DNA from: an uncultured delta proteobacterium
Lineage (GTDB): Bacteria > Desulfobacterota > Binatia > UBA9968
DNA length: 64,000 nt
Reading direction: 5' to 3'
NCBI GenBank assembly: GCA_963737905.1
Contig: CAVTUQ010000008.1
Location: 32,001 to 96,000, forward strand
The notes below the pieces were generated by a model that saw only the letters and a program-made list of their open reading frames with translations, did not search any database and had not been told where the DNA came from. The position numbers were made by a program, and so were the translations under genes. Below are positions 779 through 61,034 of the stretch, one piece after another (the stretch's first letter is position 1; the number at the start of each line of letters is the position of its first letter).

Positions 779-1606
779 CTATCCTACATCCTGGCCCCGG
801 TCATTGTCGGGGTGATTGACGGCACCTAATTTCCAGTAGCCTTGAGTGTGGGCGTGCGCCCGGTCCATTCCCCGCTCGTTCAGGAGATGGCGGCGGATAT
901 CCCGCATGACGCCGGCCTCGCACCCGATCCAGATCTGGCCGTTGCCCTCAGGAAATCGAAACTCCCGCACCGCTTGCTCCAGCCTTCGCCCGACCCGTCC
1001 GACTTCCCCGCCGTGGTGTAGCCACGTCACCTGAAACCGCGCGGGTGACTCCAACTCTAGCTCTTCCGCTGCGTCCGCCACCTCGACCAAGACATGGGCG
1101 AAGCAGGATGGCGGCAGCGCCTCAAGGAGGGTCCCCACGGCAGGGAGCGCCGCTTCGTCGCCGCCTATCAGATACCAGTCCGCCTCACCGTCCACTTTAT
1201 ATGCTCCTCCGGGCTGATGAGACACCGCAACTATCTGTCCCGGTTGGGCCTGTTCCGCCCAGGTGGAGCCGGGCCCCTCGCCGTGCAACAGGAAATCAAT
1301 CGTTAGTTCCCCTGCTTCCACATCCCATCGTCGGGGAGTGTAAGTGCGGTTCAAGGGTCGCTGCTGACCGTCCCTGAGGATCGGTCCCTCGGGTCCCCAT
1401 TCAGGGAGGACCAATTTCGGCTCACCGGGTGGAGGAAAATTCACCTTCAGGTGCTCCGCCGGGCCCTTCGTCGCAAAGCCCTCCAGTTCCTTCCCGGCGA
1501 AAACTATCCGGACCATATGGGGAGTAAGACTCTCCACCCGGGCGACTTCTGCCAGGCGCGGCTTTGCACGAACGCGACGGGGTTTCTGGGATTCAATTTC
1601 GTTCAT
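779..1606 (-). CDS. Siderophore-interacting protein (ViuB/YqjH-like FAD-binding ferric-siderophore reductase)
   Basis: LTPHMVRIVF, RTYTPRRWD, GDEAALPAV, IGCE and GYWK motifs; AAAGGAG RBS before ATG 1606. Confidence 0.9.
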   Translation of the reverse strand: MNEIESQKPRRVRAKPRLAEVARVESLTPHMVRIVFAGKELEGFATKGPAEHLKVNFPPPGEPKLVLPEWGPEGPILRDGQQRPLNRTYTPRRWDVEAGELTIDFLLHGEGPGSTWAEQAQPGQIVAVSHQPGGAYKVDGEADWYLIGGDEAALPAVGTLLEALPPSCFAHVLVEVADAAEELELESPARFQVTWLHHGGEVGRVGRRLEQAVREFRFPEGNGQIWIGCEAGVMRDIRRHLLNERGMDRAHAHTQGYWKLGAVNHPDNDRGQDVG

Positions 1607-1817
1607 CTCAACTCCTTTCACAAAACGTTAGCTTAACAAATCTTCTCTTCTTAGCTGCACCCGTTGAAAATGTCCAATCCTGTCTCTGGTCAGACAGGCA
1701 TCGGAAAACGCTGCAGCGCGGCCTCGTGGCCGCATCCGCTGGGGCGCCCCTATCCCCAAGGTCGTGTTTCGCGGTCCCGATATTAGCGGAGCCCGTCTCT
1801 GGCGTGCGCCAGAGTTG

Positions 1818-2003
1818 TTATGTTTGCTGCCGGGTCTTCGGAGCGATCGCTTCAATCTGGTCGGCGACCTCGCGAAGTTCTCGCGCCAAACCCTTGAAAC
1901 CTTCATTGATGACTTCCGTTGAGGCTGTTTCGTAGTGTACGTGTACCAGTGCTCCTTGACCAATAGTGACTTCCCATTTTTTTTCCGAAACACTGTCCTT
2001 CAT
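1818..2003 (-). CDS. Small hypothetical protein (61 aa), VHxHY family, copy 1
   Basis: AAGGAGG RBS; ungapped similarity (14/41 identities, counted by eye) to the ORF starting at 10297. Confidence 0.75.
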   Translation of the reverse strand: MKDSVSEKKWEVTIGQGALVHVHYETASTEVINEGFKGLARELREVADQIEAIAPKTRQQT

Positions 2004-2152
2004 GATTTCCTCCTTAGTATCGAGTCATCTTGTGATCTGACTAGCACCTAAATTTTCCCAGCGGTCCACCCTTTGAGAACACGGTCGGGATCGATGATTG
2101 AAGTCATCAATCTTTTGTCCAATCTGTATGATAGCTATGGCTATTTGCTCTT

Positions 2153-2464
2153 TCATTTTTTACTGATCCTTGTTCGCGGATTCTTCTTGCACACGGCCGG
2201 TGAATTCCAGCACTGATCGCTCGTGGCCGCTTTCCACCAGTGCAGAGCGCGGGCGATATGTTCTTCAATGGCCTGGGGTTTTGTTCGGTACTCGCTTCTG
2301 ATCGCGAGCATCAAGTAATGCAGAGCGATCATCGCCGCAATTTTGCCGTTGGGAATGTCGCGGTACTTTTCTTCCATCCACAGTATGGCGTTGAGAATGA
2401 CCTCCACATTGCAGTGAGCGGTCTTTTCACCCAATTCGCATGCTTTGCGTATTAAAGAGTCCAT
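2153..2464 (-). CDS. Hypothetical protein (103 aa)
   Basis: GAAAGGA RBS, ATG start, co-oriented within the iron operon; no family recognised. Confidence 0.55.
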   Translation of the reverse strand: MDSLIRKACELGEKTAHCNVEVILNAILWMEEKYRDIPNGKIAAMIALHYLMLAIRSEYRTKPQAIEEHIARALHWWKAATSDQCWNSPAVCKKNPRTRISKK

Positions 2465-2507: not shown

Positions 2508-2572
2508 AAAAGCCCGCGCTCCGCCATGGGTTGGCGAAGCCGCGGGCTCTGGATTAATCACCTCTGGCCGCT
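2508..2572 (-). promoter_or_regulatory. Candidate attenuator RNA element B (two CCAGAG boxes + terminator-like hairpin)
   Basis: Minus strand AGCGGCCAGAGG-TGATTAAT-CCAGAGCCCGCG-GCTTCGCCA-ACCCA-TGGCGGAGC-GCGGGCTTTT; second copy at 10312-10380. Confidence 0.7.
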
Positions 2573-2706
2573 GGCTATCTAATCGATCAGAGTCAGCTTA
2601 TGATTCTTACGAGCCTCTTTTATTTTTTACTGCGGTGCGACTCATAAGCGACAACATGAGGATTGCGATAGACGTGAGTTGGAGCATCAACGTCGCCGTT
2701 CCTTCA

Positions 2707-4525
2707 TCATGCCGCTGCGGAAACGCCATGGTCCCGCTGCAGGCTGGCGATCACTCCCTCGGTCCAATGCTTGGCCGGCACGTCATAGTCCACGTCGCAA
2801 TCGACACGCGGGTAAAGACGCGTGGCGCCGTGGCGCTCCAATGCCGCATCGAGATCGCGGCCGCACTTGCAGAAGTGATCATAGGTGGAATTGCCCAGCG
2901 CAAGCACGGAAAATTTCATCCCGCGTAAATTCAAGCCGTCTCTTCGCACGACTGCTTCCCAAAACGGGGCGGCATCGTCTGGGGGCTCACCATTGCCGTA
3001 GGTGCTGGTGATGATAACCACGCAGCTTTCCCGGGACAGCGCATCGACGGTGTAATGGGCCATGTCTTTCAGGCGCACATTGAAGCCCCGCCGAGCGATA
3101 ACTTCGGCGGTGCGTTGCGCGAGCGATTCGGCGTTGCCGGTTACGGTGCCGAAGAGGATTAACAGCGAAATGCTTTCAGAGTAGTTTCCCATAGCCTCAT
3201 GCCGGTGCGCGGCTGTTCCGTTTCCGTCCGCTGAATGACCTGGCTGAGAAGATTCTCCAGGCAAAATCTCGAGCTCCATAGATGATTTTTCTCCTTCGAG
3301 TTGTAAGTCTTGTGAAATTTCAATCGATGGTGCGTTCTTTGACAGCGCCGGTTGGGTAACCGACGGCTCTTCTAGTTCTCGACCCCAGGAACGGAAGCGG
3401 CGCCAGGCCATGGCCAAACCGGTCCAGACCAAAAAGCAGCCGCCCAGGGAAGCCAGACCGGCGATGGTCTGGCCGAAAAACCCAAAGGCTTCACCGGTGT
3501 GAAGACCCCTGAACCAGCTCCTGAGCTTTCTCCCTGCGCTGTTTTCCGAATAAGGCTCCCACGTCACCACTTCGGCTGTGGCACGGTTGAGGGTCAACTG
3601 CGAGCGCGCAAAATTGTGCGGCGCGCCGGGCTCGGAAATAGAAACCGTGACGGGTCCGTCCGGACGGGGCGCGAAGCGCATCATGAGCATCGTCCAGCCG
3701 GGAACTTGCCGTTCTGCGCTGGCCAGCAGAGCATCGAGATTGGCCGTTGGCTTGGCAATCCGTTGTTCTTCAGCATTACCCGCACCTCGACGGGCGCGTT
3801 GGGGCGGGCCCACGGGTCCTTGGACTCTGGGCGGTGGCTCGCTTCCCGTAAGCGTGTAGAGCACATCATTAGCCCAGGGATAGGACATGACTGCCGCGGT
3901 TAAGAGTAAGAACCACCAATACGCTCGAAGACCAGAAGCCGATGACGTTATGCCAGTTCCAGTCCCGGGCCTTGCCGCTCAGCCGGCGGTTAAATATCAG
4001 GCTGGTCTTCAGACCGCGCCACTTCCAGCTGTTCGGCCACCAGAGATAAACGCCGGTGACGGCGAGCCAGAAGAACGCCAGGTTGCAGGCGCCCGTGATG
4101 GCTTTCCCGATGGCGCGGCCTTCGTCGTCCATTCCCAGCCAACGGTGCCAATCGACGATTTCATGAAGGAAGTTGTGCGTCGCCGACAACCCGCCCAGCA
4201 GTTCGCCGGTGTAAGGATTGATGAAAACGGTGTTCTCGCGGCCAAGATTGACGATGACCGAAGCGGTGGGGTCCGACTTCATCGTGATAAATGCCGGACG
4301 GCCTTCACGATTGGCTTCACGCACTTTCCCCACCAGTTCGTTCAAGCTCAGGCGTTTGGCTTCCGGACCGGGCGTGACCCAGCGCGCATTCCATTCCGAG
4401 TATTCGGAGATCTGAGGCTCGTACATAAGCACGACGCCGGTGAAGGACATGGTAAAAATCACCAGGCCGGCGATGACGCCGGCGAGGAGGTGGGTCCAAA
4501 AAATGATCTTGTGAAATAGTTTCAT
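2707..4525 (-). CDS. PepSY-associated TM domain protein fused to C-terminal flavodoxin domain (frameshift near 3890)
   Basis: FWTHLLAG, HRWLG, WHNVIGFWSS and GLHTGE PepSY-TM motifs; flavodoxin motifs GTVTGNAE, STYGNGEPPD and LGNSTYDHFC; split over ORFs 3869-4525 and 2707-3888. Confidence 0.85.
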
Positions 4526-4552: not shown

Positions 4553-5084
4553 TTACTTTTTTAGGTCGCTGAACTCTTGGATGAACCAGTGGCGCAAAAG
4601 ATCCTTCTCATAACGCAAGTAATCATCCATCGGATAAAAAGTCCGCAACTGATAATTAAGGTCGGTCAACTCCCGTTTGCCGCTCCGAACCACTTGACCG
4701 CTCGGGCCGATGACGCGAAACTCGAGGGCAATCCGCGGCGGATAGAGGCCGTTGGTGATCCGTACCTGATCTGATTGCGGTCCATGCCACGGCTCGAAAT
4801 TGCCGGCGAGATCAACGTCGGTGACTCTGATATCCAGATTCATATCCCGCGGGATTGTTTCGTCTCCCATTTCTTGCATGAACTTTGCGATGGTATCGAG
4901 GATGGAGTCAGAGTTGGGCTTGAAATCGGCACGTCTCGCATCGGTGAACTTTTCCGGCTTCACAAAGACGACGGCAATTCGCGAGACTGGTTCTGGTTCC
5001 TGAGACGCTGCCGCGTAACTCGAAGCCGAACAGAACGGTCACGATCAGCGCTTGGTAAAGAATCCGGCAAGAGGGTTGGTTCAT
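4553..5084 (-). CDS. DUF3016-like exported protein (frameshift in N-terminal region)
   Basis: PEKFTD, VTDVDLAG-FEPW, YPPRI and LRYEK motifs; signal-like N-terminus from ATG 5084 lies in another frame. Confidence 0.7.
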
Positions 5085-5089
5085 GACGT

Positions 5090-5772
5090 CTACACTTCCG
5101 CAAAGCGACGCAGCAAATTGTGATAACAATTTGTCAGGCTCACCACTCCAGCATGGTTGGGCAAAGCCTGGTTGACCTGGTTGATCGCCATATCGAGATC
5201 GAAAAGAAGCGTTCTTTGACCATCGTCGCGCACCATACTCTGCACCCAGAAGAATGCTGCCAACCGCACGCCCCTTGTCACTGGATTAACGTGATGCAAG
5301 CTGGTTGCTGGGTAGACGACCATGTCACCAGCCGATAATTTCAGCGGATGTGCGCCGTAGACATCGTCGACGACAAGCTCACCGCCGTCATATTCGTCCG
5401 GGCTGCTGACAAAAAGGGTCGCGGATATATCGGTGCGTATCCGGTAGGGCGTGCCGGGAATTTGCATGACCGAGTTATCCAAATGCGACGCCAAACGATT
5501 CGCCGCCTTCGTAACGGTTGAAGAGCGGCGGAAAGACCCGGAGCGGCAACGCCGCAGTGATAAAAAGCGGGTTGCGCTCCAGGGCTGCGACGATCATGTC
5601 GCCCAATTCCCGCGCCTCGGGGCTGTTCTCAGCCAGCTGACGATTGTTTTTAACGACCTTCGATTGGTAACCTGCGGTGACGCGCCCGTCCACCCAGACT
5701 CGCCCGGTGCATCACTTCCCGACAATGGGCGACCTGTTCCTGGCTAAGAACGTGGGGAATATGGACAATCAT
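5090..5772 (-). CDS. piuC: PKHD-type Fe(II)/2-oxoglutarate hydroxylase (PiuC/YbiX), frameshifted
   Basis: [44 protein letters not shown] and [11 protein letters not shown] spread over three reading segments. Confidence 0.88.
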
Positions 5773-5787: not shown

Positions 5788-8009
5788 TTAGAATCTAAAG
5801 AAGGTGCTCGCGATGAAGGTTCTTCCTGCGCCGGGCACGACATGGGACGGATGTATGCTTTCAATAAAGGCAGCGTTGGTAAGATTTTGAGCGTTCAGAC
5901 GGCACTGAATCCTCTCGGTGACGTTGTAAGCTACCGTCGCATCCCAGCGAACATAACCCGGGACCTCATTGACATTTGAATTGTTCGCGAACCGGCTGCC
6001 GACGTAAGTTGGCCCGCCGCCGATCTGCCACTTGTCCAAAAAGTCGTAGGTGGTCCAGAGAGTCGCGCTGTATTTCGGTATGTTCTGCGGCACCTTGCCC
6101 TGGAGGGAATAGGTCACGCCTTCGACAGTCTGAACGTCCTTGGACTTGAGAATCTTCGCGTCGAGAAAAGTGTAGCCGGCCCATACGTTCCACCCGGGCA
6201 GAATCCGTCCGGCTGCGCTGAACTCGACGCCACGGGAGCGCTGCTTGCCGTCGAGCACTTGCACGCCAAGGATAGGGTCGTTGGTGCGGGCATTGGTCTT
6301 CTCGATCGTGAACAACGCGCCTTGGAGGGTCAGCGCTCCGCCCATCAATAAAAATTTGCTGCCGATTTCGAAGATCTCGTTCTTTTCCGGCGGTGTCGCC
6401 TGGTTGTTGGCCGCCAACGTCAACCCTTCGGCCGAGGGGTTGAAGGCGGTTGCATAGGAGAAATAGTAGCTCTGCTGCGGCGTCGGATGAAAAACCAGGC
6501 CGCCGCGGTAACTGAACATCTTGTCCAGGCTGTCGAAGTCCACTTGCCCGGGCAATTTGTTTTCTTGATCGGCGCTAAAATAGTCCCAGCGCACGCCCCC
6601 GATGATGTCGAACTATTCATGCAATGCGATCTGGTCCGCGGCATAAATACCGAATCCGGCTGCGTCGGTAAAAGCGCTTCACCCCTAAGGTTTTGGGATT
6701 CGGGGTTTGATTGTTATTTGGGTTGTTAAGGGTCGTGGCGGGACCGGCGCTGGCATACCGGAGGTTATCGAGTCGTATCCCAGGACAGCTCTATGCCGCT
6801 AGCGAGCGTGTGCCCGAAGCCAAAGGTGTTGAACCGCGCGGTAAGGTCGGTCTGGCTGTCCGCAGATGCCTTCCGTGGTGTGGCGTTCCGGCCGGCTTCT
6901 GGTGATCCAGTGATTGTTGCGCCGGGTCCGCAAGTAATGGGCGCTGCGCAAGGGTAGGGCCGGTATACTCAGATCCAGGTCGCGGCGGACATTGCTATAG
7001 CGAAATGCGCTGCGTAAATTCAGAGCGTCGCTGAATTGATGGTTCAGGCTGATGGTGCCGATATTGGTGTAAGTTTTTTCATAGTCGTGCTTGGTCAAGC
7101 CATACCAGGTACCCCGGTCGACCCGCACGGGTTCGCCGTGGAAAAAAGGAAAACCGTAGTCCGGAATGTTGTCTTCGTGCTGAAACAAATAACTGAAGTT
7201 CATCTGGGTCGGCGTGCCGAGGCCCAGGTGAGAGTTGGAGCGAAGCCCTGGCGGGTCACTTTGACATGATCTCGGTCGACGATATCGGCGTGGTGGGCCA
7301 TGGCGTTCAGACGAAGAGCCATTGTGGGGGAGAGTGGCTGATTGATGTCCGCGGTGCCGCGGAAGTAAGGGCCGCTACCGGCGCTGGCGGTCCCATCGTA
7401 GAAGCCCTCGAGTTGGGGAGCCTTGCTGACCTGGTTGATGATCCCGCCGGTGGAGCCGCGACCGAAGTAAATGGAAGCGGGTCCCTTGAGCACTTCAACG
7501 CTTTGGATATTGAAGGTGTCGCGGAAATAGGTCCCTTGATCGCGGACGCCGTCCAGATACATGTCGTTGCGCGCGCTGAAGCCGCGCAGGGTGAAGTTGT
7601 CGCCCTGAGCGCCGCCAGCTTCACTCGCGGCGATACCGATGCCGGTGACATTGCGCATCGCATCGCGCAAGGTTGTCGCCGCCTGTTCGTTCATGATTTC
7701 TCTTGGCACAATGGTGATGGACTGGGGGATGTCTTGCACCGGCTCGGGTAGACGCTGCAGCCCCAGGTTCGGCACGACATAAGGACTCTTTTCCTCGGTG
7801 ACTGTTACTTGGGGCAGCGTGAATTCTTCTTGCTTTTGTTGTTCCGCTGGTTTGGGTTCCGCCGCCTTTGGTTCCGCCGCGAAACCGTTAGTTGCCAAAG
7901 CGAACGTAAAGGCCACGGCTCGGCCGACACCCTCACCGGCGGCGAGGGTGATCTTGTGGAGGAGTTTGTTCCTCCGTCTTTCATTGGCACGTTTTTCTTG
8001 TCGACTCAT
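5788..8009 (-). CDS. TonB-dependent siderophore receptor (Fiu/PiuA-like), multiple frameshifts
   Basis: Plug motifs DIPQSITIV, LRGF and VEVLKGPAS..FGRGSTGGIINQVSK; beta-barrel C-terminus ending FRF; GGAGG RBS. Confidence 0.9.
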
Positions 8010-8077
8010 GGTTTCCTCCAAAGTGTGAATTTTTTGTTGCTGGCTGGCATGAGTCGCCTCATACACTGGCTGGCTGG
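8002..8077 (-). promoter_or_regulatory. Receptor 5' leader with GCCAGCCAG direct repeats flanking a GNRA hairpin (candidate HemP-responsive element)
   Basis: Minus strand CCAGCCAGCCAG-TGTATGAG-GCGA-CTCATG-CCAGCCAGC immediately downstream of hemP. Confidence 0.6.
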
Positions 8078-8277: not shown

Positions 8278-9078
8278 CTAATGGAGCTCAAATTTTACCG
8301 GCAGTAGCACCCATACCTGTACGGCTTCTTTACCCCTGCGCGCAGGTTCGAAGAGCCATTTTTTCACCGCTTCAGCGGCGGAAAAATCAAGGTCACGAAA
8401 GCCAGCGGACTTCTCAATGAGAACTTCACCAACACGCCCGTTTTCCAGCACTCTGACTCTCAATAACGGTAACGCCTTGCGCGCCGATTTTTCGCGCCGA
8501 TTCGGGATAGCGCGGCTTGACCTGATAGCCTCCGAGCGGACGAGCCACCGCCGCAAGCCCATTGCCATTGCCACCACCGCCGAAACCATCCCCTTTTTCA
8601 CCTCTGCCTAGCCCTGCGACTGCCGTGCCCCCGCCGCCTCCGCCCATGCCGCTGCCGCCCGCGACTTCTACGTCGCCGCCGGCAAATAGACCTCCCACAC
8701 CCGCTTCCCCTCCTGCTGCCTCGCCGGCGGGCGCTTTGCTAGCGACGCTGCCTTTCTCCGGACCTGAGGCCGTCAGCTCGGGTGGCGGAGGTAGTTCCTC
8801 GACTTTCGGCGGCGGTTCGTTGGGTCTCGACTCTGGCGATGTCGGTCTTTATGAATCAGCCTGGGTGCTTTTATCTTCTCGACTTTCTTGGGCTCGGGTT
8901 TGGGCGCGGGTGCCGGATCGGGCGTTTGCTTCACTTCGGGGATATCGGTCAGGGAAACCTCGATATTCTGCGTTGGTGTCGTCGGCCTAGTCCCAGCGAT
9001 AAGGAGCGAAGCCGTAGGGATCAGGGCAGCGTGGATCAATGCGGAGATGGCGAAACCGGAAAACAGCGAATCCTTCAT
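8278..9078 (-). CDS. tonB: Energy transducer TonB (frameshifted)
   Basis: N-terminal TM with S-x3-H (SALIH), Pro/Lys- and Gly-rich linker, C-terminal domain PRYPESAR...LDFSAAEAVKKW.FEPA; follows exbD. Confidence 0.85.
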
Positions 9079-9491
9079 CACTTGGTCTCCTTGGGTTTAA
9101 CAGCGATGGACAACTTGGTGGCGCCGGTCTGGCGGGCCTCATCCAAGATTTCCACAACTTTGCCATGTTGGACCCCGTCATCTGCATTGATAACCACCAG
9201 CAATTCGGGAGTCTTCGCCAACTCCGCGCTCAACGATTGGCGCAGTAACTCCTCCGAAATCGCACTCTTATTGAAAAAGAGTTGGCCTTCCTTCGTGAGA
9301 GAAATCACAGCGGTTTCAGTAGGCGGTTGGCTTCCTGTAGCGGCCTTGGGCAGATTCACTTGCACGCCGGTAAAGCGTGCCATGGAGAGAGTTGAAATCA
9401 TGAAAAAGACCAGCAGAAAGAAAATCGTATCGATCATGGGAATGATTTCGATGCGAGCCTTTTTTAAGTTTCTCTTTCTTTGCAGCCGCAT
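9078..9491 (-). CDS. exbD: Biopolymer transporter ExbD
   Basis: IIPMIDTIFFLLVFFMI TM with Asp, VNLPKA, INADDGV. Confidence 0.92.
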   Translation of the reverse strand: MRLQRKRNLKKARIEIIPMIDTIFFLLVFFMISTLSMARFTGVQVNLPKAATGSQPPTETAVISLTKEGQLFFNKSAISEELLRQSLSAELAKTPELLVVINADDGVQHGKVVEILDEARQTGATKLSIAVKPKETK

Positions 9492-10099
9492 TAGCGGGCC
9501 TCCTGTTGGGCGAGCAGAGCCAGCTCCAGGCGCGAAGCGAAGTATTCGATATTCTCCATCTCCTTTTCCGCGCGTGAGGTAAAATAGTTGTAGGGAATGA
9601 GAGTCAGAATCGCGATGAGCAATCCGGTCGCGGTCGCGATCAGAGCCTCGGCGACTCCCCCTGTCACTGCGTGAGGCTGGCCCAGTCCGGCGTCGGACAT
9701 GATGCCGAAAGAGCTGATCATGCCGGTAATCGTGCCGAGAAGGCCCAAGAGCGGCGCCAAAGTGATGATCGTATCGAGAATCACCAGACGGCGCTTGAGA
9801 ATCGGCATCTCGCCCTGCGCCGCCACTTCCATGGCTTTCGAGTAGGAAGGATTGCGGTGCGCTAGGCCGGCGGTGAGAACCCGCGCGGCTGGCAATGGCG
9901 ACCCCTGACCGTCGGAGAGCGCTTCCTTCAATTTCCCTTGCTCAACCGATGCGAGCATCTGCTCTACCGGCTGCTTCGAGCTGATGCCGCGCCAGTAGAG
10001 AAGGCGTTCTATGGTTACCGCGAGTGAAATGATCGAGCACAAAACCAAGGGGATCATGACCAGCCCCCCTTTGACGACAATGGAAATGATGTCAGACAT
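9491..10099 (-). CDS. exbB: MotA/TolQ/ExbB proton channel
   Basis: GGLVMIPL, APLLGLLGTITGMI and GGVAEALIATATGL; start MSDIIS at 10099. Confidence 0.92.
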   Translation of the reverse strand: MSDIISIVVKGGLVMIPLVLCSIISLAVTIERLLYWRGISSKQPVEQMLASVEQGKLKEALSDGQGSPLPAARVLTAGLAHRNPSYSKAMEVAAQGEMPILKRRLVILDTIITLAPLLGLLGTITGMISSFGIMSDAGLGQPHAVTGGVAEALIATATGLLIAILTLIPYNYFTSRAEKEMENIEYFASRLELALLAQQEAR

Positions 10100-10101
10100 G
10101 G

Positions 10102-10297
10102 CTACTGCAAGAGTCCTTTCTTGTTTTGAATTTCGTGTTCCTGTAATGTCGACACCCAGCCGGTTAGCCAGTCGTTGAAGTTCCACCGCCAAATCAGGAA
10201 AATCATCCTTCAGAATGTGAAGAGAACCGGTGCCGTAGTGCAGATGGACGGTTCCTCTTTCGCAGAGCGCGATTTCCCATCTTCGGTTTTTTTTCAT
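10102..10297 (-). CDS. Small hypothetical protein, VHxHY family, copy 2 (reads in frame into exbB as given; probably a separate gene)
   Basis: GGAGG RBS then MKKNRRWEIALCERGTVHLHYGTGSLHILKDDFPDLAVELQRLANRL; an out-of-frame TAG sits 2 nt before the exbB ATG. Confidence 0.7.
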
Positions 10298-10311
10298 TCT
10301 GGTCCTCCAAC

Positions 10312-10380
10312 AAAAGAGCCCGATACTCCGCCGTGTCTCGACAGGATATCGGGCTCTGGGTTTCAAAACCTCTGGCCGCT
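10312..10380 (-). promoter_or_regulatory. Candidate attenuator RNA element A (two CCAGAG boxes + terminator-like hairpin)
   Basis: Minus strand AGCGGCCAGAGG-TTTTGAAAC-CCAGAGCCCGATA-TCCTGTCG-AGACA-CGGCGGAG-TATCGGGCTCT-TTTG, followed by an RBS. Confidence 0.72.
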
Positions 10381-10405
10381 CAAGATTCGAAATCAAACAT
10401 TTCGG

Positions 10406-10597
10406 CTAAATTTCATTTACCATCTTTGCCGCCCTATCCTTTTCCAGCGGGACGATGATTTGCCTTTTGCATCGCCGGCATTTCAACTCGACTCCTTCCG
10501 GTACCAAGCGCGCCAGCATGCTGCCGCACAGACAACGAAAGGGTTTTATTCCCGGATGATCGTGGCCGGGCTTATCTTGGCCGTGTTGCTTCAACAT
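10406..10597 (-). CDS. Com-like Cys4 metal-ribbon small protein (63 aa)
   Basis: FRCLCGSMLAR...VELKCRRCKR resembles the Mu Com pattern (RC..C..LLA...EIKC.RC); start overlaps the FTR1 3' end. Confidence 0.75.
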   Translation of the reverse strand: MLKQHGQDKPGHDHPGIKPFRCLCGSMLARLVPEGVELKCRRCKRQIIVPLEKDRAAKMVNEI

Positions 10598-12543
10598 AGC
10601 TTTCTTTGTCTCGTGCGGCCTTTTGGTTTTCTCTGGCCATCCAGAACGAAGTCGCTACAAATGCGAGCAGCATCAAACCTTGGGCCGCCAATGTTTCGAG
10701 CGTTGGATATATCCCCAAGAATGGCACCTGCGGAACAAAACCGACCGGCGTGCTCGGAACCCATCCGGCGGCCTGGAGCTCCTTGATCCCATTGCCGGCA
10801 AAAATGAAGGCCATAATATAAAGCAGAGTTCCGGTGGCGCCGAAAAAGTATTTCAGCGGTATGCGCACGCCGAGCTTGAGAATCGCGAAAGTCACTACGA
10901 GCAGAGCCGCCAGACCCGTCTACGAAGCCCCAGACCACCGCGCCACGGTTGCTTTCGTTCTGTAGCCAGAGCGCTTGATAGAACAGCACGACCTCAAAAG
11001 CTTCTCGATACACGGCGAAGAACGAGATGCCCACGAGGCCGAGAATTTTTTTGCCGGAGAGAACGCTTCTTGACTTTATTTTGAATAAACGCCTGCCAGC
11101 GTTTGGCTTCGGTTCGGGTATGAAGCCAATAGCCGACATAAAATAGTGCAACCGCCGCGAACACGGAAATGAAGCCCTCCATGCTCTCGCGATGTTGGCC
11201 GCTAAAAGTCAGTACGGTTTGAGTGGCGATCCAGGTCAGGCCGCCAGCAATCAGCGCGAGGATCCAACCCAGGTGGATATAACGGATCGCCTCACTTGCA
11301 CCCATGACTCTAAGCATCGCCAGAATTGCGGCAAGGATCAGAGCCGCTTCGAGACCTTCTCGTAGAATGATCAGCGCGGAGTTAGTGAAGGAATAATAGT
11401 AGCCGGAAAGACTGTCGTCACGGGCCAGTATCTCGTGACGCCTGATCTAAATTGGCTTCGAGTTCCAGATGGCGTTTCTGAATTTCCTCGGCAGGAAGTC
11501 CTCGTCGGATGGCGTTGCGAAATTCGGTGAATTTTCCCTCGATGCTTCGACCAAAAGAAAGATCTTTCGCAAATAAGGCCGGTTCCGCCAGATCAAACCC
11601 GTCGATATAGGCTTCTACCGATTTTTGATATGCCTTTTCCCTTTCTCCCTTGTTATAGAGCTCGGAGGCTTCACGAAGCAGCGTGCGGGCGACTAGCAGC
11701 GGATCGTTGGGTTTTGTTTCTAGAAGTCCGCGCCGAAGGTAGGCGAGGGCAGCGTTGGCTTGCGACTCTTTGCTCAGCGTAGGGCTTTAGTTTTTCGACA
11801 AGCTGTTCGTCGGAGCTTGTCGCGAGGGTAGGTACGGTTGTTAGATCACTGGTGACATTCTTCGACTGAAGCAGGGAGGCGCCTGCCTTAGCCGAATCCG
11901 CTGAGAAACGAAGGGAAAGAACATAAAAAGCTACTTGCCAGCGCTGATCTTCGCTGAGGGCAGCGAAGGAAGCCATCGCGGTGTTCTCCACCCCGAAGCT
12001 AGCCACGTTGAAAGCCTTGAAAGGAGAGAGCCCGGCCATAAATTCCGCATCGGTAAAATTGGCCGGCGCGGGATTTTTAGGATTCATCGTGGCGCGACTG
12101 GGACCGTCGCCTTTGCCAGTCTCGCCGTGGCACTGCGCGCAGTTCTCCAAATAAATTGCTTTCCCGCTCGCCAGAGACGGAAGCTGTTTGGGGTAGGGAA
12201 CGATATTATAAGTGGCGATCAGTTTTTGTTTGGCACTATTGGCAAGCTCCGCCACCGTTTTTGGGTCGCCCTTGTTGTCAATCTGATTGGCAAGAGACTT
12301 GAGGCTCGGCTCAATGCTGGCCTTATCCGCTTTGTCCGCGGCTTTGAGCTGGTTGAGAAGCTCGACGATCCGCTTGGAGAATTCCTGCATCTCCCCGTAT
12401 TCATCCTGGTTGACGATCTTCCCGTCTTGGACAGCGTTTTTGTAATCGCTGCCCAGGTAATCGAGCAAGGCCACGAGTCTTCTTGCCTCGTCGTCGGCGA
12501 AGGCCATGGAGGCGCCGAATAAAAAAGTCAGAAAAATCACCAC
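10572..12543 (-). CDS. Cytochrome c / FTR1 iron permease fusion (PbrT-like), several frameshifts; true start may be near 12637
   Basis: CAQCH heme motif; REGLE and REAFE FTR1 motifs; GIKELQAAG and GIYPTLE C-terminus; pieces in different frames. Confidence 0.85.
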
Positions 12544-12880: not shown

Positions 12881-12900
12881 AAGTTAGTATCATCTAACTT
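12881..12900. promoter_or_regulatory. Inverted repeat, candidate operator of the DtxR-family repressor
   Basis: AAGTTAG-TATCAT-CTAACTT in the divergent region between the iron operon and the repressor gene. Confidence 0.55.
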
Positions 12901-12941: not shown

Positions 12942-13613
12942 ATGTCAAGCTCTAAGGTTACTCAAGCTATCGAGGACTATCTCCGGACCATTTATGCTCT
13001 TGAAGAAGAGGTCCAGCCGGTGATTGCCGCGCGGGTCGCGGAGGAAGTAGGCGTTACGCCGTCGACGATGGTGAGTACGCTACGCCGATTGGAAGGCGAG
13101 GGTTATCTAAAGGTCATTCGGCGCAAGGAGATTCATTTGACCGCCGAGGGCAAACAAGTCGCAGAAAGGATTCTGCGCCGCCATTTTCTTCTGGAGCGCT
13201 TCTTGACAGATCTGTTGGGATTGGATTGGGTGAAAGCGCACCAAGAAGCCCATCGCCTCGAACACGCTCTATCGCAGGAAGTGGAGGACCGACTGGCCAA
13301 ACTGCTCGGCTATCCGACGACCTGCCCGCACGGCAATCCCATTCCAAGCAAAGACTCACAGAAGCCGCCGAAGAGCAGAGGGACTCCCTTGCATAGTATC
13401 GCGGCTGGGAAAGAGGTCGAGTTGGATTACATCACCGAGGGTGGGGAGCGAGATGCGCGACTTTTGGGTTTCATGCAAGAGCACGGGCTCGTCCCGGGCA
13501 CCAAGGTTCGCGTGCTCGACGTAGCGCCGTCAATGGGAGTGATGAGCCTAAAAGTCGGCCAAGACGAATTTTCCCTCGGCATCGAAGCCGCCAAAAAGAT
13601 TCGTGTCCATTAA
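12942..13613 (+). CDS. DtxR/MntR/IdeR-family metal-dependent repressor with FeoA-like C-terminal domain
   Basis: EDYLRTIY, HTH, RRHFLLERFL, EAHRLEH and CPHGNPIP motifs. Confidence 0.93.
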   Translation: MSSSKVTQAIEDYLRTIYALEEEVQPVIAARVAEEVGVTPSTMVSTLRRLEGEGYLKVIRRKEIHLTAEGKQVAERILRRHFLLERFLTDLLGLDWVKAHQEAHRLEHALSQEVEDRLAKLLGYPTTCPHGNPIPSKDSQKPPKSRGTPLHSIAAGKEVELDYITEGGERDARLLGFMQEHGLVPGTKVRVLDVAPSMGVMSLKVGQDEFSLGIEAAKKIRVH

Positions 13614-19835: not shown

Positions 19836-20219
<384 letters not shown>

Positions 20220-24983: not shown

Positions 24984-25352
<369 letters not shown>

Positions 25353-27468: not shown

Positions 27469-27825
<357 letters not shown>

Positions 27826-46343: not shown

Positions 46344-46420
46344 CGGGGCGTAGCGCAGCCTGGTAGCGCACCTGCCTTGGGCGCAGGGGGTCGGAAGTTC
46401 AAATCTTCTCGCCCCGACCA
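46344..46420 (+). tRNA. tRNA-Pro(TGG)
   Basis: Cloverleaf; anticodon loop CTTGGGC; CCA end. Confidence 0.95.
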
Positions 46421-46426
46421 GATTTA

Positions 46427-46486
46427 CAGTCAGCAGTGGACAGTAACCAGTGAACAGTTGGGGCGACTGTTTTCTGTTCACTGCTA
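46427..46486. repeat. Heptamer inverted array in tRNA spacer
   Basis: CAGTCAG CAGTGGA CAGTAAC CAGTGAA CAGT ... ACTGTTT TCTGTTC ACTGCTA. Confidence 0.65.
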
Positions 46487-46497
46487 GCTTTTGAGTT

Positions 46498-46574
46498 GCG
46501 CCAGTAGCTCAGCTGGATAGAGCAACGGCCTTCTAAGCCGTAGGTCAGGGGTTCGAATCCCTTCTGGCGCGCCA
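46498..46574 (+). tRNA. tRNA-Arg(TCT)
   Basis: Anticodon loop CTTCTAA; GTTCGAATC; CCA end. Confidence 0.95.
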
Positions 46575-46592
46575 CCGTGGGTTTTTCGATGT

Positions 46593-46669
46593 GGTGAGTG
46601 TAGCTCAACGGTTAGAGCACTGGACTGTGGCTCCAGGGGTTGAGGGTTCAAATCCCTTCACTCACCCCA
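46593..46669 (+). tRNA. tRNA-His(GTG)
   Basis: Anticodon loop CTGTGGC; G-1; CCA end. Confidence 0.95.
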
Positions 46670-46682
46670 AGCTATTTCGTCT

Positions 46683-46743
46683 GAGGATAGACGATCGAAT
46701 CGACGATCACGATCTTCGATCCTCTGTATTCGATGCTCGATTT
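46683..46743. repeat. Heptamer inverted array in tRNA spacer
   Basis: GAGGATA GACGATC ... CGATCTT CGATCCT CTGTATT CGATGCT; same family as 36527-36591. Confidence 0.55.
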
Positions 46744-46750
46744 GGCGCAT

Positions 46751-46826
<76 letters not shown>

Positions 46827-46964
46827 AACATTTCAAGCAAAGACGCGTTACGTGGCACACGGGCGTTCCCGCTAAGAATCTATTGTTTAGACTAATTGGT
46901 AGTGAGATAATCTCATAACAATCCGCACCACCACGGCAAGCGCCTACCGCGGGCGGAGTCACAT

Positions 46965-47490
46965 ATGGGGCTGGATGAAGGAATGACCTACTCGATGCCC
47001 TTGGAGGTGTATCTCCAGTCAGCTGTAGTACGCGGAATCCTTGGTACGAATCAGGATCGTCTAAGCAACTATTTTATTCTTCGAGAAGGCGACGAGGTGT
47101 TTTCTCTCAAAGAGGCAATGCTGGAAAGTCGCAGACCGAAAACCGGTGGCGATAAGTGCTGACGAGTACCTTATTTATATGCAAGAAGTATTTTTGATCG
47201 CGGATCTGAGTCCGCAATTCAGGTCGGAGCGGTCGGGTCTCGAGCATCTCTACGTGAAGAAAGAGGCGAGCAAAGCGTTGTTGGGCGTCGGTCCATTCTG
47301 GCTCCGAGGAAATATCCATCTTATACCTGGGAGTGCACTCCATGAGCTTTTGATGGCAAAAACGCGCTTCATTCCAGTAACCGATGCGACGTTGATAGAT
47401 CGCTCCGACGTGGGACCCCGCACCTATCTGGTTAATCGAACCAAGATCGGTTTCATCACAGCCGTCGGCGAAGGCCTAGAAGAGTTATAA
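46965..47490 (+). CDS. Hypothetical protein with tandem DUF6812-like domains (frameshift near 47130)
   Basis: Repeated pattern RG.l....RLS...F..L.EA and RGNIHL.PG...RFIPVTDA...VNR..I. Confidence 0.6.
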
Positions 47491-47505
47491 TCATAAGGAT
47501 GAATT

Positions 47506-47823
47506 TTGGAATCGCACTATCCGACTGAAATCAACCATATTAAAGCGGACGGCCTCATCCGGATCACTTGGGAGGATGGTCACGTTGGAGCGTACGCTCA
47601 GGAGTATCTTCGCGGGTACTGCCCCTGTGCGTTGTGCCAAGGGCACGGGGTGCAAAGAAATTTTGTTTCCGTTCCCGAGGCTAGGCTACAAGAGATTCGC
47701 GCTGTCGGTAACTATGCCATCGAATTCGTCTGGCACGACGGTCATAGCACCGGAATCTACACTTACGACTACCTAAGATCTCTCTGTCCCTGTGACGGTT
47801 GTAAAGAGCGTCAACCCGATTAG
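47506..47823 (+). CDS. DUF971 / gamma-butyrobetaine hydroxylase N-terminal-like protein
   Basis: ITWEDGH, YLRGYCPCALC, VGNYAI..WHDGHSTGIYTYDYL. Confidence 0.88.
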   Translation: MESHYPTEINHIKADGLIRITWEDGHVGAYAQEYLRGYCPCALCQGHGVQRNFVSVPEARLQEIRAVGNYAIEFVWHDGHSTGIYTYDYLRSLCPCDGCKERQPD

Positions 47824-47934
47824 GCCTGATCTTTCCTCGCCTGAATCTGCTCGTCTCATGAACCTGCACTATAAGTCATGTCTGCTCGTGTGCAGAAATC
47901 CAAGCTCGCTTAGGTAATTTAGGCGGTGCAGCAC

Positions 47935-47963
47935 TTGACATAGCACAACTCCTTTTCTACTCT
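47935..47963 (+). promoter_or_regulatory. Sigma-70-type promoter of tRNA-Leu/tig
   Basis: TTGACA-N17-TACTCT. Confidence 0.6.
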
Positions 47964-48006
47964 CCTTTTTTGTTCTGAGAGGTCGACGTGTTCTTGAGTA
48001 ATTCAA

Positions 48007-48090
48007 GCGAGAGTGGCGGAACTGGCAGACGCACTAGACTTAGGATCTAGCGGGTAACCCGTGGGGGTTCGAGTCCCCCCTCTCGCACCA
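48007..48090 (+). tRNA. tRNA-Leu(TAG)
   Basis: Anticodon loop CTTAGGA; long variable arm; CCA end. Confidence 0.95.
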
Positions 48091-54420: not shown

Positions 54421-54495
54421 GGGCGGTTAGCTCAGCGGGAGAGCATCGGCCTTACAAGCCGGGGGTCACAGGTTCAAATCCTGTACCGCCCACCA
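54421..54495 (+). tRNA. tRNA-Val(TAC)
   Basis: Anticodon loop CTTACAA; CCA end. Confidence 0.95.
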
Positions 54496-54516
54496 GACGG
54501 TTCGTCGCACAGTATC

Positions 54517-54593
54517 GGGGTCGTAGTTCAGCTGGTTAGAACGCCGGCCTGTCACGCCGGAGGTCGCGAGTTCGAGTCTCGTCGGCCCCGCCA
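54517..54593 (+). tRNA. tRNA-Asp(GTC)
   Basis: Anticodon loop CTGTCAC; CCA end. Confidence 0.95.
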
Positions 54594-58983: not shown

Positions 58984-59058
58984 GCTGGCGTAGCTCAACG
59001 GTAGAGCAGCTGATTTGTAATCAGCAGGTTGTAGGTTCAAGTCCTATCGCCAGCTCCA
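58984..59058 (+). tRNA. tRNA-Thr(TGT)
   Basis: Anticodon loop TTTGTAA; CCA end. Confidence 0.95.
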
Positions 59059-59151
59059 GACAGATTAATTGTCATGGTGTTGAGATATACAGAACGGCGA
59101 TCGCTCGTTGGAAGCACGGGGCAAGGGATAGTGCAGTTTTTAGAGAGAAGA

Positions 59152-59236
<85 letters not shown>

Positions 59237-59245
59237 TTTTTGTTT

Positions 59246-59321
59246 GCGGGAATAGCTCAGTTGGTAGAGCGCGAGCCTTCCAAGCTCGGGGTCGCGGGTT
59301 CGAGTCCCGTTTCCCGCTCCA
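59246..59321 (+). tRNA. tRNA-Gly(TCC)
   Basis: Anticodon loop CTTCCAA; CCA end. Confidence 0.95.
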
Positions 59322-59410
59322 ATTTGCGCATGACTGTGATGGCGGATAGCGGATGGCTGGCCTCTTTGTGGAGAAATTTAGGCCGTAGGCTATGGCCCGT
59401 TGACAGGTAT

Positions 59411-59483
59411 GCCCAGGTAGCTCAGTCGGTAGAGCACGTCCTTGGTAAGGACGAGGTCAGCGGTTCAATCCCGCTCCTGGGCT
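59411..59483 (+). tRNA. tRNA-Thr(GGT) (CCA not encoded)
   Basis: Anticodon loop TTGGTAA; GCCCAGG/CCTGGGC acceptor stem. Confidence 0.93.
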
Positions 59484-59578
59484 TTTGCCGGAATTGAGGT
59501 TGCTTTACGCCGAAGAGTTAGGAATGCAAACAAAACCGTACAGCCATTGACTGGGAAACATAGTAGTAGGAGGAAGTG

Positions 59579-60769
59579 ATGAGCAAGCAGAAATTTGAGC
59601 GAAAAAAGCCTCACCTGAATATCGGTACGATCGGTCACGTCGACCACGGGAAAACAACGTTGACCGCCGCGATTACCAAGGTGTTGGAGAAGCAGGGTAA
59701 GGCCAAGTTCATGGCTTATGATCAGATCGACAAAGCACCGGAAGAAAGAGAGCGGGGGGTCACGATCAATATCGCCCACGTCGAGTATGAGACGGATAAG
59801 CGCCACTATGCTCACGTTGATTGCCCAGGCCACGCGGACTATATAAAGAACATGATCACCGGGGCCGCCCAGATGGATGGCGCGATTTTGGTGGTTTCGG
59901 CGGCTGACGGCCCCATGCCGCAAACCCGGGAACACATCTTGCTCGCACGACAAGTCGGGGTCCCGGCCATTGTGGTCTACTTGAACAAGGCAGATATGGT
60001 CGACGATAAGGAACTCCTAGAACTTGTCGAGTTAGAGGTTAGGGAGCTGCTTTCCAAGTATAAGTTTCCAGGAGATGATACTCCGATCGTCGTGGGAAGC
60101 GCCCTAAAGGCGTTGGAGGGGGATACGTCAGAGATCGGCGAAGGGTCGATCATGAAGCTTATGGAGGCTGTGGATTCGTTTATTCAGGAGCCTGTCCGGG
60201 CCATCGATAAACCGTTCATCATGCCGGTGGAAGATGTCTTCACCATCAGCGGTCGCGGAACCGTAGTCACCGGTCGTGTGGAGCGCGGGATCGTCAAGGT
60301 CGGCGAAGAGATTGAGATCGTGGGATTTAGGGATACTCAAAAAACGGTGGCGACGGGTGTCGAGATGTTTCGCAAGCTCTTGGACGAGGGCCGAGCCGGC
60401 GACAACATTGGCGTGCTGCTGCGAGGAACCAAGCGCGAAGAGGTTGAGAGAGGGCAGGTTCTAGCCAAACCCGGCAGCATTACGCCGCATACAAAATTTA
60501 ACGCCGAGGCTTACGTACTAACTAAAGAAGAGGGTGGACGGCACACACCCTTTTTCAACGGCTACCGGCCACAGTTCTACTTCCGAACCACCGATGTTAC
60601 TGGGGTTGTGAAGCTTCCTCAGGGCACCGAAATGGTCATGCCCGGTGACAATATCAATGCAGAGATCGAGTTGATCACGCCGGTGGCCATGGACGAAGGG
60701 CTGAAATTCGCGATCCGCGAAGGCGGTAAGACCGTCGGCGCAGGCATCGTGACCAAGATCATCCAGTAA
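59579..60769 (+). CDS. tuf: Elongation factor Tu
   Basis: [28 protein letters not shown]. Confidence 0.98.
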
Positions 60770-60792
60770 CTCCAAGGAGGGAGGCTGCGATC

Positions 60793-60945
60793 ATGCGAGA
60801 ACTCATAGGGTTTGCTTGCGACCAATGTAAGCGAAAGAATTACACGACGACGAAAAACAGAAAGAAGACTACGGAAAAATTGGCTCTTAAGAAATTCTGT
60901 TCTTCTTGCCGGATCCATACCCTGCATCGCGAGGTAAAAGTCTAA
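60793..60945 (+). CDS. rpmG: 50S ribosomal protein L33 (Zn-binding C+ form; missing from ORF track)
   Basis: Manual translation MRELIGFACDQCKRKNYTTTKNRKKTTEKLALKKFCSSCRIHTLHREVKV. Confidence 0.95.
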   Translation: MRELIGFACDQCKRKNYTTTKNRKKTTEKLALKKFCSSCRIHTLHREVKV

Positions 60946-60956
60946 CAAAGATACAG

Positions 60957-61034
60957 GGGTCAGTAGCTCCAATTGGCTAGAGCGCCGGACTCCAAATCCG
61001 GTTGTTGCAGGTTCGAGTCCTGCCTGACCCGCCA
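60957..61034 (+). tRNA. tRNA-Trp(CCA)
   Basis: Anticodon loop CTCCAAA; lies between rpmG and secE. Confidence 0.93.

Follow-up and report, generated by a model that had tools for sequence, protein, structure and literature searches.

Why should a gene for a Cys4 zinc-ribbon protein of 63 amino acids (aa) lie in the middle of an iron-uptake operon, directly ahead of a transcription terminator? The question is raised by a 64,000-nucleotide (nt) stretch of DNA from an uncultured member of the Binatia (contig CAVTUQ010000008.1, positions 32,001 to 96,000), referred to below as the window; all positions are those of the whole window. Here the ribbon gene is followed by an RNA element with two CCAGAG boxes, then by the gene of a small VHxHY protein and by exbB-exbD-tonB, all on the minus strand. 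From sequence comparisons we suggest, with moderate confidence, that the region is a protein-operated RNA switch acting by protein-stabilised antitermination. The protein would be the ribbon itself, probably a remote relative of the Com protein of phage Mu.

A ribbon gene followed by a two-box RNA element

A preliminary description of this DNA reported a 63-aa CxC...CxxC open reading frame (ORF) followed by tandem CCAGAG boxes, the second forming the 5' arm of an 11-bp perfect stem with a U tract, ahead of a ribosome-binding site. This anatomy is confirmed. The element starts 28 nt past the stop codon of the ribbon gene, counted from the GGCC at 10377, with box 1 at 10375-10370 and box 2 at 10359-10354. 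It reads GAGCGG-CCAGAG-GUUUUGAAAC-CCAGAG-CCCGAUA...UAUCGGGCUCU-UUUUGUU. The terminator stem, AGAGCCCGATA / TATCGGGCTCT, has 11 perfect pairs (10357-10347 with 10325-10315), to which six further, inner pairs can be added.

The element recurs in the window at 2577-2508, also as described earlier. A covariance model (R1) was built from an alignment (A1) of 20 elements, taken from the window and from 14 relatives whose loci were located via the protein; two of the 20 rows come from an unpublished genome (G012). In the 6.7-Mb genome of the window, R1 finds exactly two sites, which are the two window copies (E 2e-15 and 1e-12). Three extra matches to a looser pattern in this genome all lie within coding sequence, without a hairpin, and are not elements. 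The sequence GGCCAGAG upstream of the ribbon gene, pointed out in the preliminary description, is indeed present at 10638-10631. However, it is not part of the element, because GGCCMGMG is kept in just one of 25 FTR1-linked relatives; it lies inside the FTR1 coding frame (WMARE) and was rejected as a third box.

The consensus of the 20 elements is AG(C/A)GG-CCAGAGG-U-N4-8-A(A/U)C-CCAGAGCCCGG, followed by the U tract; the terminator stem is conserved at its ends and variable in between. A wider set of 79 distinct elements, with 62 distinct cores, has GGCC-M-G-M-GG-Y, a spacer, and R-(C/U)-CC-M-G-M-GCC as its invariant part. The spacer between the boxes is 3-8 nt long, 5-6 nt in 67 of the 79, and mostly ends in GA.

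The element matches no Rfam riboswitch or leader family. An Rfam scan of the window gave nothing at gathering score apart from 12 tRNAs, and at E<=10 nothing credible over 10250-10700 or in six related loci. Rfam 15 and full-text literature searches, with subscription journals and supplementary files outside their reach, gave no description of the module.

The protein and the element occur together

Among 61 genomes of the same order, 18 have a strong match to the Com-like protein (E<1e-10). Strong R1 matches (E<1e-8) are found in 17 of these 18 and in none of the 43 genomes without the protein. Since 15 of the 17 positive genomes contributed training sequences to R1, the independent weight rests on the absences and on G003 and G007, which did not contribute. 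There are one to three elements per genome, and some are distant from the ribbon gene. Four weak R1 matches in another family (f3) were rejected, three being GroEL terminators without box 1 and one an unrelated repeat.

Scanning one genome per species identified 173 loci encoding relatives of the protein, of which the best 80 were analysed. These come from Binatia metagenome-assembled genomes and from Myxococcus, Corallococcus, Pyxidicoccus, Hyalangium, Sorangium and other Myxococcota. Of the 80 loci, 59 have a relaxed bipartite motif on the strand of the ribbon gene, no more than 350 nt downstream of it. In the same scan, covering about 851 kb, there are 11 further plus-strand matches and no minus-strand match, i.e., 70 versus 0 in all. 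All R1 matches of at least 40 bits (36/36) are on the strand of the ribbon gene.

The test was also reversed, by choosing metagenome contigs by the RNA pattern alone. This gave 76 distinct instances, 66 of them with at least 250 nt upstream, and in 47 of the 66 a Com-like ORF is located directly upstream. The link between protein and element is far beyond chance, and the enrichment of the tandem-box-terminator motif downstream of homologues is seen in two phyla and in both directions. Uncultured Binatia with the module number in the hundreds, and it is also present in Myxococcus, Corallococcus and related myxobacteria.

Across the phylum, four of 150 further genomes sampled encode the protein. 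A strict-filter R1 scan of this sample gave no matches outside G000. Direct inspection of the four protein-positive genomes places the element behind the gene in three of them, with none in G203. In G001 (C53, L024/L029), from the same genus as the window, a deletion has brought a Com-like N-terminus up against mid-exbB, and no element is present genome-wide. This may be a case of co-loss, or an assembly chimera.

An alternative layout is seen at L036, L042 and L044 (G016, G012 and G030) and at L062, L063, L070 and L118. It consists of the Com-like gene, an element, a 100-aa protein without family (MPAVGK...), a XRE-type helix-turn-helix gene, a second element and VHxHY.

Two predicted folds of the element

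In both window copies, a GC-rich hairpin is directly followed by a U tract, UUUUGUU in the first copy and UUUUCGAUUUU in the second, as in an intrinsic terminator. The minimum free energy (MFE) of the whole element is -32.4 kcal/mol for the first copy and -36.2 kcal/mol for the second. Two outer pairs of the terminator stem, 36:65 and 37:64 of the alignment, show double changes. Both window elements have loops too long for a simple terminator scanner, which therefore overlooked them. For 40 of 78 elements, the MFE hairpin has the GCC of box 2 in its 5' arm and is followed by a U tract, and a run of at least four T follows the element in 65 of 74 metagenome instances.

The ends of the two boxes are complementary to each other. 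G1G2C3 can pair with G8'C9'C10' and G8G9Y10 with R1'C2'C3', around a symmetric 4x4 internal loop of CMGM over CMGM. The outer three pairs of this hairpin consume the GCC that opens the terminator stem. In 61 sequences, the pair Y10:R1' is UA in 39, CG in 15, UG in 5 and other in 2, never C:A, and the observed covariation score was reached by none of 500 shuffles. The helix also admits G:U pairs (UG 5 and GU 11 of 61). In a low-GC lineage, GAC...GUU takes the place of GGU...ACC, a second compensatory change. For 17 Myxococcaceae leaders, RNAalifold predicts the box 1-box 2 pairing unaided, lengthened by a CCUG/CAGG helix.

The antiterminator hairpin alone has a free energy of -5.8 kcal/mol in the first copy and -4.2 kcal/mol in the second. 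Against the terminator fold it cannot compete unaided, so a stabilising factor would be needed. Rather than two separate single-stranded sites, the boxes are more plausibly the two strands of an antiterminator hairpin. The MFE fold of three Corallococcus loci has box 2 paired to the stretch that separates the Shine-Dalgarno sequence from the AUG, a hint of translational control, as in Mu.

A variant is found together with a ribbon gene in G157 (L143:470-560, minus strand), a low-GC genome of 1.9 Mb from another family of the same phylum. It has GAC/GUU as inner helix, and its box 2 precedes a distinct terminator rich in AU.

Assembled contigs from two RNA-library runs of one study cover the ribbon gene and the 3' end of FTR1 (10382-10673 and 10405-10622). 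None of these contigs, from related soil organisms with 88-95% likeness, extends over 10149-10381; as contigs they are uninformative on termination.

The ribbon protein is probably a remote relative of Mu Com

The searches found 444 homologues of the ribbon protein. They share a basic, nearly invariant core, RCxCGSLLARLVPxGVELKCRRCKRxxxVPLE, from Binatia to Myxococcota, with four invariant Cys and a variable tail. The Com-like identity proposed in the preliminary description is probable. When the family profile (A2) is aligned to Mu Com (from NC_000929) using hhalign, the result is Prob 89.6%, E 1.9e-6, over 31 columns with 39% identity. The common core is [VI]E[LI][KR]C[RP]RCKR[QH]II. Many homologues are named "phage FluMu protein Com" by JGI, and one is named "Com family DNA-binding transcript..." in UniRef.

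Sequence searches of Pfam, NCBIfam and PDB gave nothing relevant and no Pfam domain of any kind, and tblastn against 50,697 phage records gave nothing below E 4. The AF2 model has three short strands, with a predicted local distance difference test (pLDDT) value of 79-86 across the core and 65.6 overall. Using the ribbon and VHxHY models, Foldseek on PDB gave nothing at E<=0.001. A predicted ribbon homodimer with Zn scored 0.36 with the mark at 0.42, which speaks neither for nor against binding.

In Mu, Com is described as recognising 5'-CC(N)2-3GAG-3' in a hairpin loop, with a bipartite motif from systematic evolution of ligands by exponential enrichment (SELEX), and Com opens an inhibitory hairpin that adjoins, and in part coincides with, its natural site (Nowacka et al. 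2019, PMC6483171). Here the boxes have the form CC-N-GAG, their GA falling within the internal loop, an analogy to the Com motif at the sequence level.

A proposed mechanism and its alternatives

We suggest that about 70 nt of transcript can adopt two folds. The default would be the strong intrinsic terminator, whose 5' arm opens with box 2. In the alternative, box 1 and box 2 would pair into a weak hairpin, G-G-C|C-M-G-M|G-G-Y, a 5-6-nt loop and R-C-C|C-M-G-M|G-C-C, which would pull the GCC at the terminator's base away from the U tract. The Com-like ribbon, translated from the same transcript just upstream of the element, would bind the CMGM loop strands, i.e., the CCAGAG boxes, probably with one copy per half-site. 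Thus stabilised, the antiterminator would let RNA polymerase read through into the VHxHY, ExbB, ExbD, TonB and receptor genes. The ribbon would also act in trans at the second element, 2577-2508; secondary sites away from the ribbon gene are as expected for a trans-acting factor.

The targets behind the elements are all iron-uptake genes: ExbBD/TonB, a TonB-dependent receptor, porin-like, cupredoxin, DUF4198, ferritin and SIP. In one genome (G032; L056:930-1421, minus strand) an element 6 kb from the Com-like gene lies ahead of a ferritin-like gene, so the regulon may cover iron storage besides uptake. A DtxR/IdeR-family repressor, divergent from the operon (Table 1), is likely the primary iron sensor, and the palindrome in the divergent promoter region is, as we take it from its resemblance, a candidate DtxR-type operator. 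Iron would most likely be sensed at this promoter, and the Com-like step could be a second gate, setting a threshold or the timing, that links TonB-dependent uptake, which is costly, to lasting expression of the FTR1 gene upstream.

Several points weigh against this mechanism. That the ribbon binds RNA, that its control favours read-through, its stoichiometry and what it does in the cell are all inferred, and the direction of control is read solely from there being no other antiterminator present. None of 22 family members matches PF10122 (Zn_ribbon_Com) or NCBIfam, even at E<=10, and Mu Com itself matches PF10122 at 2.7e-9; the first knuckle of the family is CxC and not CxxC. In G036 and G203 the protein is present with no recognisable element, and no element comes after the ribbon gene of G007. 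The boxes do not always retain the GAG of the Com motif, since their M positions are A or C among the 62 cores. In 38 of 78 elements, mostly from Myxococcota, there is no U-tract terminator, so the output must differ there. The antiterminator has a single covarying pair in the 61-sequence alignment. Its other five pairs are fixed by the regular expression used for collecting the sequences, and independent changes of Y10:R1' are few because most C:G cases come from one clade, the Myxococcaceae. Finally, a box-1-only triloop hairpin, GGCC-NGN-GGYN, fits equally well, with 96.7% paired, although without double changes.

The preliminary description had placed the sensing in the ribbon. Zn or Fe occupancy of the Cys4 site, or its oxidation, would then decide whether the ribbon folds and binds RNA, and read-through would report the metal status. 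Cys4 knuckles are able to hold Fe, the four Cys of the ribbon are invariant and the module is confined to iron-uptake operons. However, we found no evidence of metal-dependent sensing and consider it unlikely, given that a canonical DtxR/IdeR repressor adjoins the operon and that an activator of uptake that requires metal would respond to iron with the wrong sign, except if Zn is displaced by Fe. The His-rich N-terminal stretch of the window protein is not conserved, and the Cys4 site of Mu Com is described as coordinating zinc (PMC6483171), in our reading a purely structural role. The ribbon might instead be a repressor, in a negative feedback where a box 1 hairpin and a bound box 2 favour termination or, in Myxococcota, occlusion of the ribosome-binding site. 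The co-occurrence data are silent on the sign of the control, and the triloop hairpin of box 1 is equally compatible with the sequences. This is nevertheless quite unlikely, as the terminator dominates the fold by more than 25 kcal/mol unaided, the sole conserved alternative structure removes terminator bases, and Mu Com is described as an RNA-binding activator opening an inhibitory hairpin (PMC6483171).

It would be more surprising if the Com-like gene were a co-transcribed passenger and the element were run by a small ligand, a metal ion or another protein such as VHxHY. Small riboswitches exist, VHxHY is the commonest gene directly behind the element in Binatia, and its model weakly matches the PUR/PC4 single-strand nucleic-acid binders (Z 4.6, 4.5, 4.3 and 4.2). 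Yet all these Z scores are below 5 and not significant, the VHxHY family is tiny (57 representative clusters) and no member turned up in Myxococcota loci where element and ribbon gene are both retained. A riboswitch would need no ribbon gene directly upstream, which 47 of the 66 pattern-chosen instances have, and no Rfam family matches, so we regard the passenger reading as very unlikely. That the boxes are direct repeats forming a DNA operator for a DNA-binding regulator of the Com family, as the UniRef name of one homologue would have it, is hardly credible. The strand bias is strict (70 plus versus 0 minus), the site follows the gene of the regulator and shares bases with a terminator, the helix accommodates G:U pairs and Mu Com is described as binding RNA (PMC6483171).

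The antitermination switch could also be cast more broadly, as a widespread class of riboregulation in which the ribbon Cys4 site reports Fe or Zn and operates a symmetric 26-nt antiterminator (in Myxococcota, a ribosome-site switch) as a post-initiation metal checkpoint on TonB-dependent iron uptake, with the PUR/PC4-like VHxHY feeding back onto this RNA in Binatia. In this extended form the claim is quite doubtful.

Relation to known systems

The likeness to Mu Com goes beyond the proteins, which are small (about 62 aa with an N-terminal Cys4 ribbon in Mu, 63 aa here). In both, the ribbon is encoded just upstream of the site on one transcript (here in 59/80 loci and 47/66 instances), and a CC(N)nGAG motif lies in a small hairpin, here a predicted one, that is beside and overlaps an inhibitory hairpin, described for Mu as opened on binding (PMC6483171). 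However, the inhibitory hairpin in Binatia is an intrinsic terminator, while in Mu it is a ribosome-site trap. The site here is a symmetric internal loop built from two boxes, and the first knuckle is CxC with no match to a Pfam model. Further, the module here belongs to chromosomal iron uptake with extra trans sites, while Mu Com serves a phage DNA-modification gene.

In mechanism only, the element is analogous to the ribonucleic antiterminator (RAT) hairpin of BglG, SacY and LicT. There too, the hairpin is weak, contains internal loops and shares bases with the 5' arm of a terminator, against which it prevails only with a protein bound at a near-symmetric site. The ribbon, however, has neither CAT nor PRD domains, only a 35-residue zinc ribbon, and there is no sugar-phosphotransferase input. 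HutP, TRAP and PyrR likewise bind repeated short RNA motifs and choose between terminator and antiterminator, but they are ligand-activated multimers of unrelated folds and are not encoded immediately before each site.

Chromosomal com-like genes (PF10122) of Pseudomonas precede genes for the bacteriocin llpA, tailocin cargo and levansucrase, and their role is stated to be unexplored (PMC6240691). As here, a chromosomal Com homologue is located directly upstream of single targets. Unlike the window ribbon, they match PF10122 and belong to phage-derived clusters, with no iron link and no RNA site or terminator described in the available text of that paper.

Com has so far been a one-system curiosity of phage Mu, with the Pseudomonas genes noted and unexplained (PMC6240691). 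The module would give Com-type ribbons a cellular RNA target, a terminator output and a coherent iron-uptake regulon, and it is directly testable because it is present in the genetically tractable Myxococcus, Corallococcus and related myxobacteria. If the switch is real, a very small protein-RNA pair, with about 35 structured residues and 26 nt, would join the known antitermination mechanisms and add a post-initiation layer to bacterial iron regulation.

VHxHY is an accessory family of Binatia

VHxHY has 75 close matches, mostly of 64 aa, without a Pfam match, and the 57 representative clusters were obtained from 1.84 billion proteins. Its model has a confident beta3-alpha fold (pLDDT 85.6). 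All structural matches, to PUR repeats and PC4 homologues (Z 4.6-3.5), fall below Z 5 and are not significant by the tool's own note. The preliminary description made VHxHY part of a metal-sensing module. A role as metal-binding partner could not be upheld, as the invariant residues are just W, V, H, Y and L, with a single His, and a Cys/His metal site was rejected. Since the family is not found in the Myxococcota loci with ribbon gene and element, it stands outside the core of the module, as an accessory, Binatia-only family. At two loci (L059:92-703, minus strand; L034:1591-2208, plus strand) the gene directly behind an element encodes a fusion of a VHxH domain with a second, C-terminal domain of some 140 aa that has no Pfam match.

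Gene order and state of the assembly

The features of the locus are collected in Table 1. FTR1 is located directly 5' of the ribbon gene, an order kept in 26-27 of the 80 loci, and in the window the start of the ribbon gene overlaps the 3' end of FTR1 by 26 nt. The genes behind the second element are a 103-aa ORF without family (2464-2153), a VHVHY paralogue of 61 aa (2003-1818) and a siderophore-interacting protein (1621-779; SIP 1.7e-37, FAD_binding_9 2.2e-33).

Table 1. Coordinates of the locus and of the second element in the window.
Feature	Position	Strand	Evidence and remarks
DtxR/IdeR-family iron-dependent repressor with FeoA domain, divergent from the cytochrome c-FTR1 operon	12942..13613	+	Pfam Fe_dep_repress 2.5e-14, Fe_dep_repr_C 1.5e-31, FeoA 2.2e-11
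Palindrome AAGTTAG-N6-CTAACTT, divergent promoter region	12881..12900		read from sequence
Cytochrome c domain and FTR1 iron permease	10572..12543	-	Pfam Cytochrom_C 1.2e-12, FTR1 2.5e-6; split by indels
Com-like Cys4 zinc-ribbon gene, 63 aa, CxC...CxxC, proposed trans factor	10406..10597	-	
Antiterminator core (predicted)	10352..10377	-	GGC|CAGA|GGU - loop - ACC|CAGA|GCC; alone -5.8 kcal/mol
Intrinsic terminator and U tract	10309..10357	-	hairpin 10357-10315, U tract 10314-10309; first bases are box 2
VHxHY small-protein gene	10102..10297	-	1-nt indel in assembly; Shine-Dalgarno GGAGG 10308-10304; ATG 10297; reads VHLHY
exbB (10099-9491), exbD (9491-9078), tonB in pieces (9081-8278)	8278..10099	-	Pfam MotA_ExbB 1.7e-30, ExbD 3.2e-32, TonB_C 2.9e-12
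TonB-dependent receptor, three frames	5788..8066	-	Pfam Plug 3e-24, TonB_dep_Rec_b-barrel 1.9e-43
Second element copy, no ribbon gene upstream (putative trans site)	2508..2577	-	core 2569-2545; box 1 2567-2562; box 2 2552-2547; 58.7 bits
Genes behind second element	779..2464	-	three ORFs

In the assembly, the VHxHY frame continues into exbB without a stop, and the distance from its ATG to the TAG at 10104-10102 is 196 nt, one base in surplus. Related soil contigs have one base fewer at 10149/10150, and another fewer at 10921 in FTR1. Because these contigs are one base shorter and the homologues are typically of 64 aa, VHxHY is a separate gene carrying an indel. The genes for the TonB-dependent receptor, TonB, FTR1 (10572-11317) and a PepSY_TM/flavodoxin protein (2707-4525) are also split over two or three frames. 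Single-base indels are apparently frequent in the assembly.

Downstream of the receptor gene (4553-5494, minus strand) are genes for a DUF3016 protein and a PKHD-type Fe2+-dependent dioxygenase (YbiX-like, truncated or frameshifted). Elsewhere in the window, three 300-nt direct repeats (19880-20179, 25013-25312 and 27486-27785), 83-85% identical and spaced by 5.1 and 2.5 kb, are probably paralogous genes. The twelve tRNA genes form three clusters, at 46344-48087, 54421-54590 and 58984-61031.

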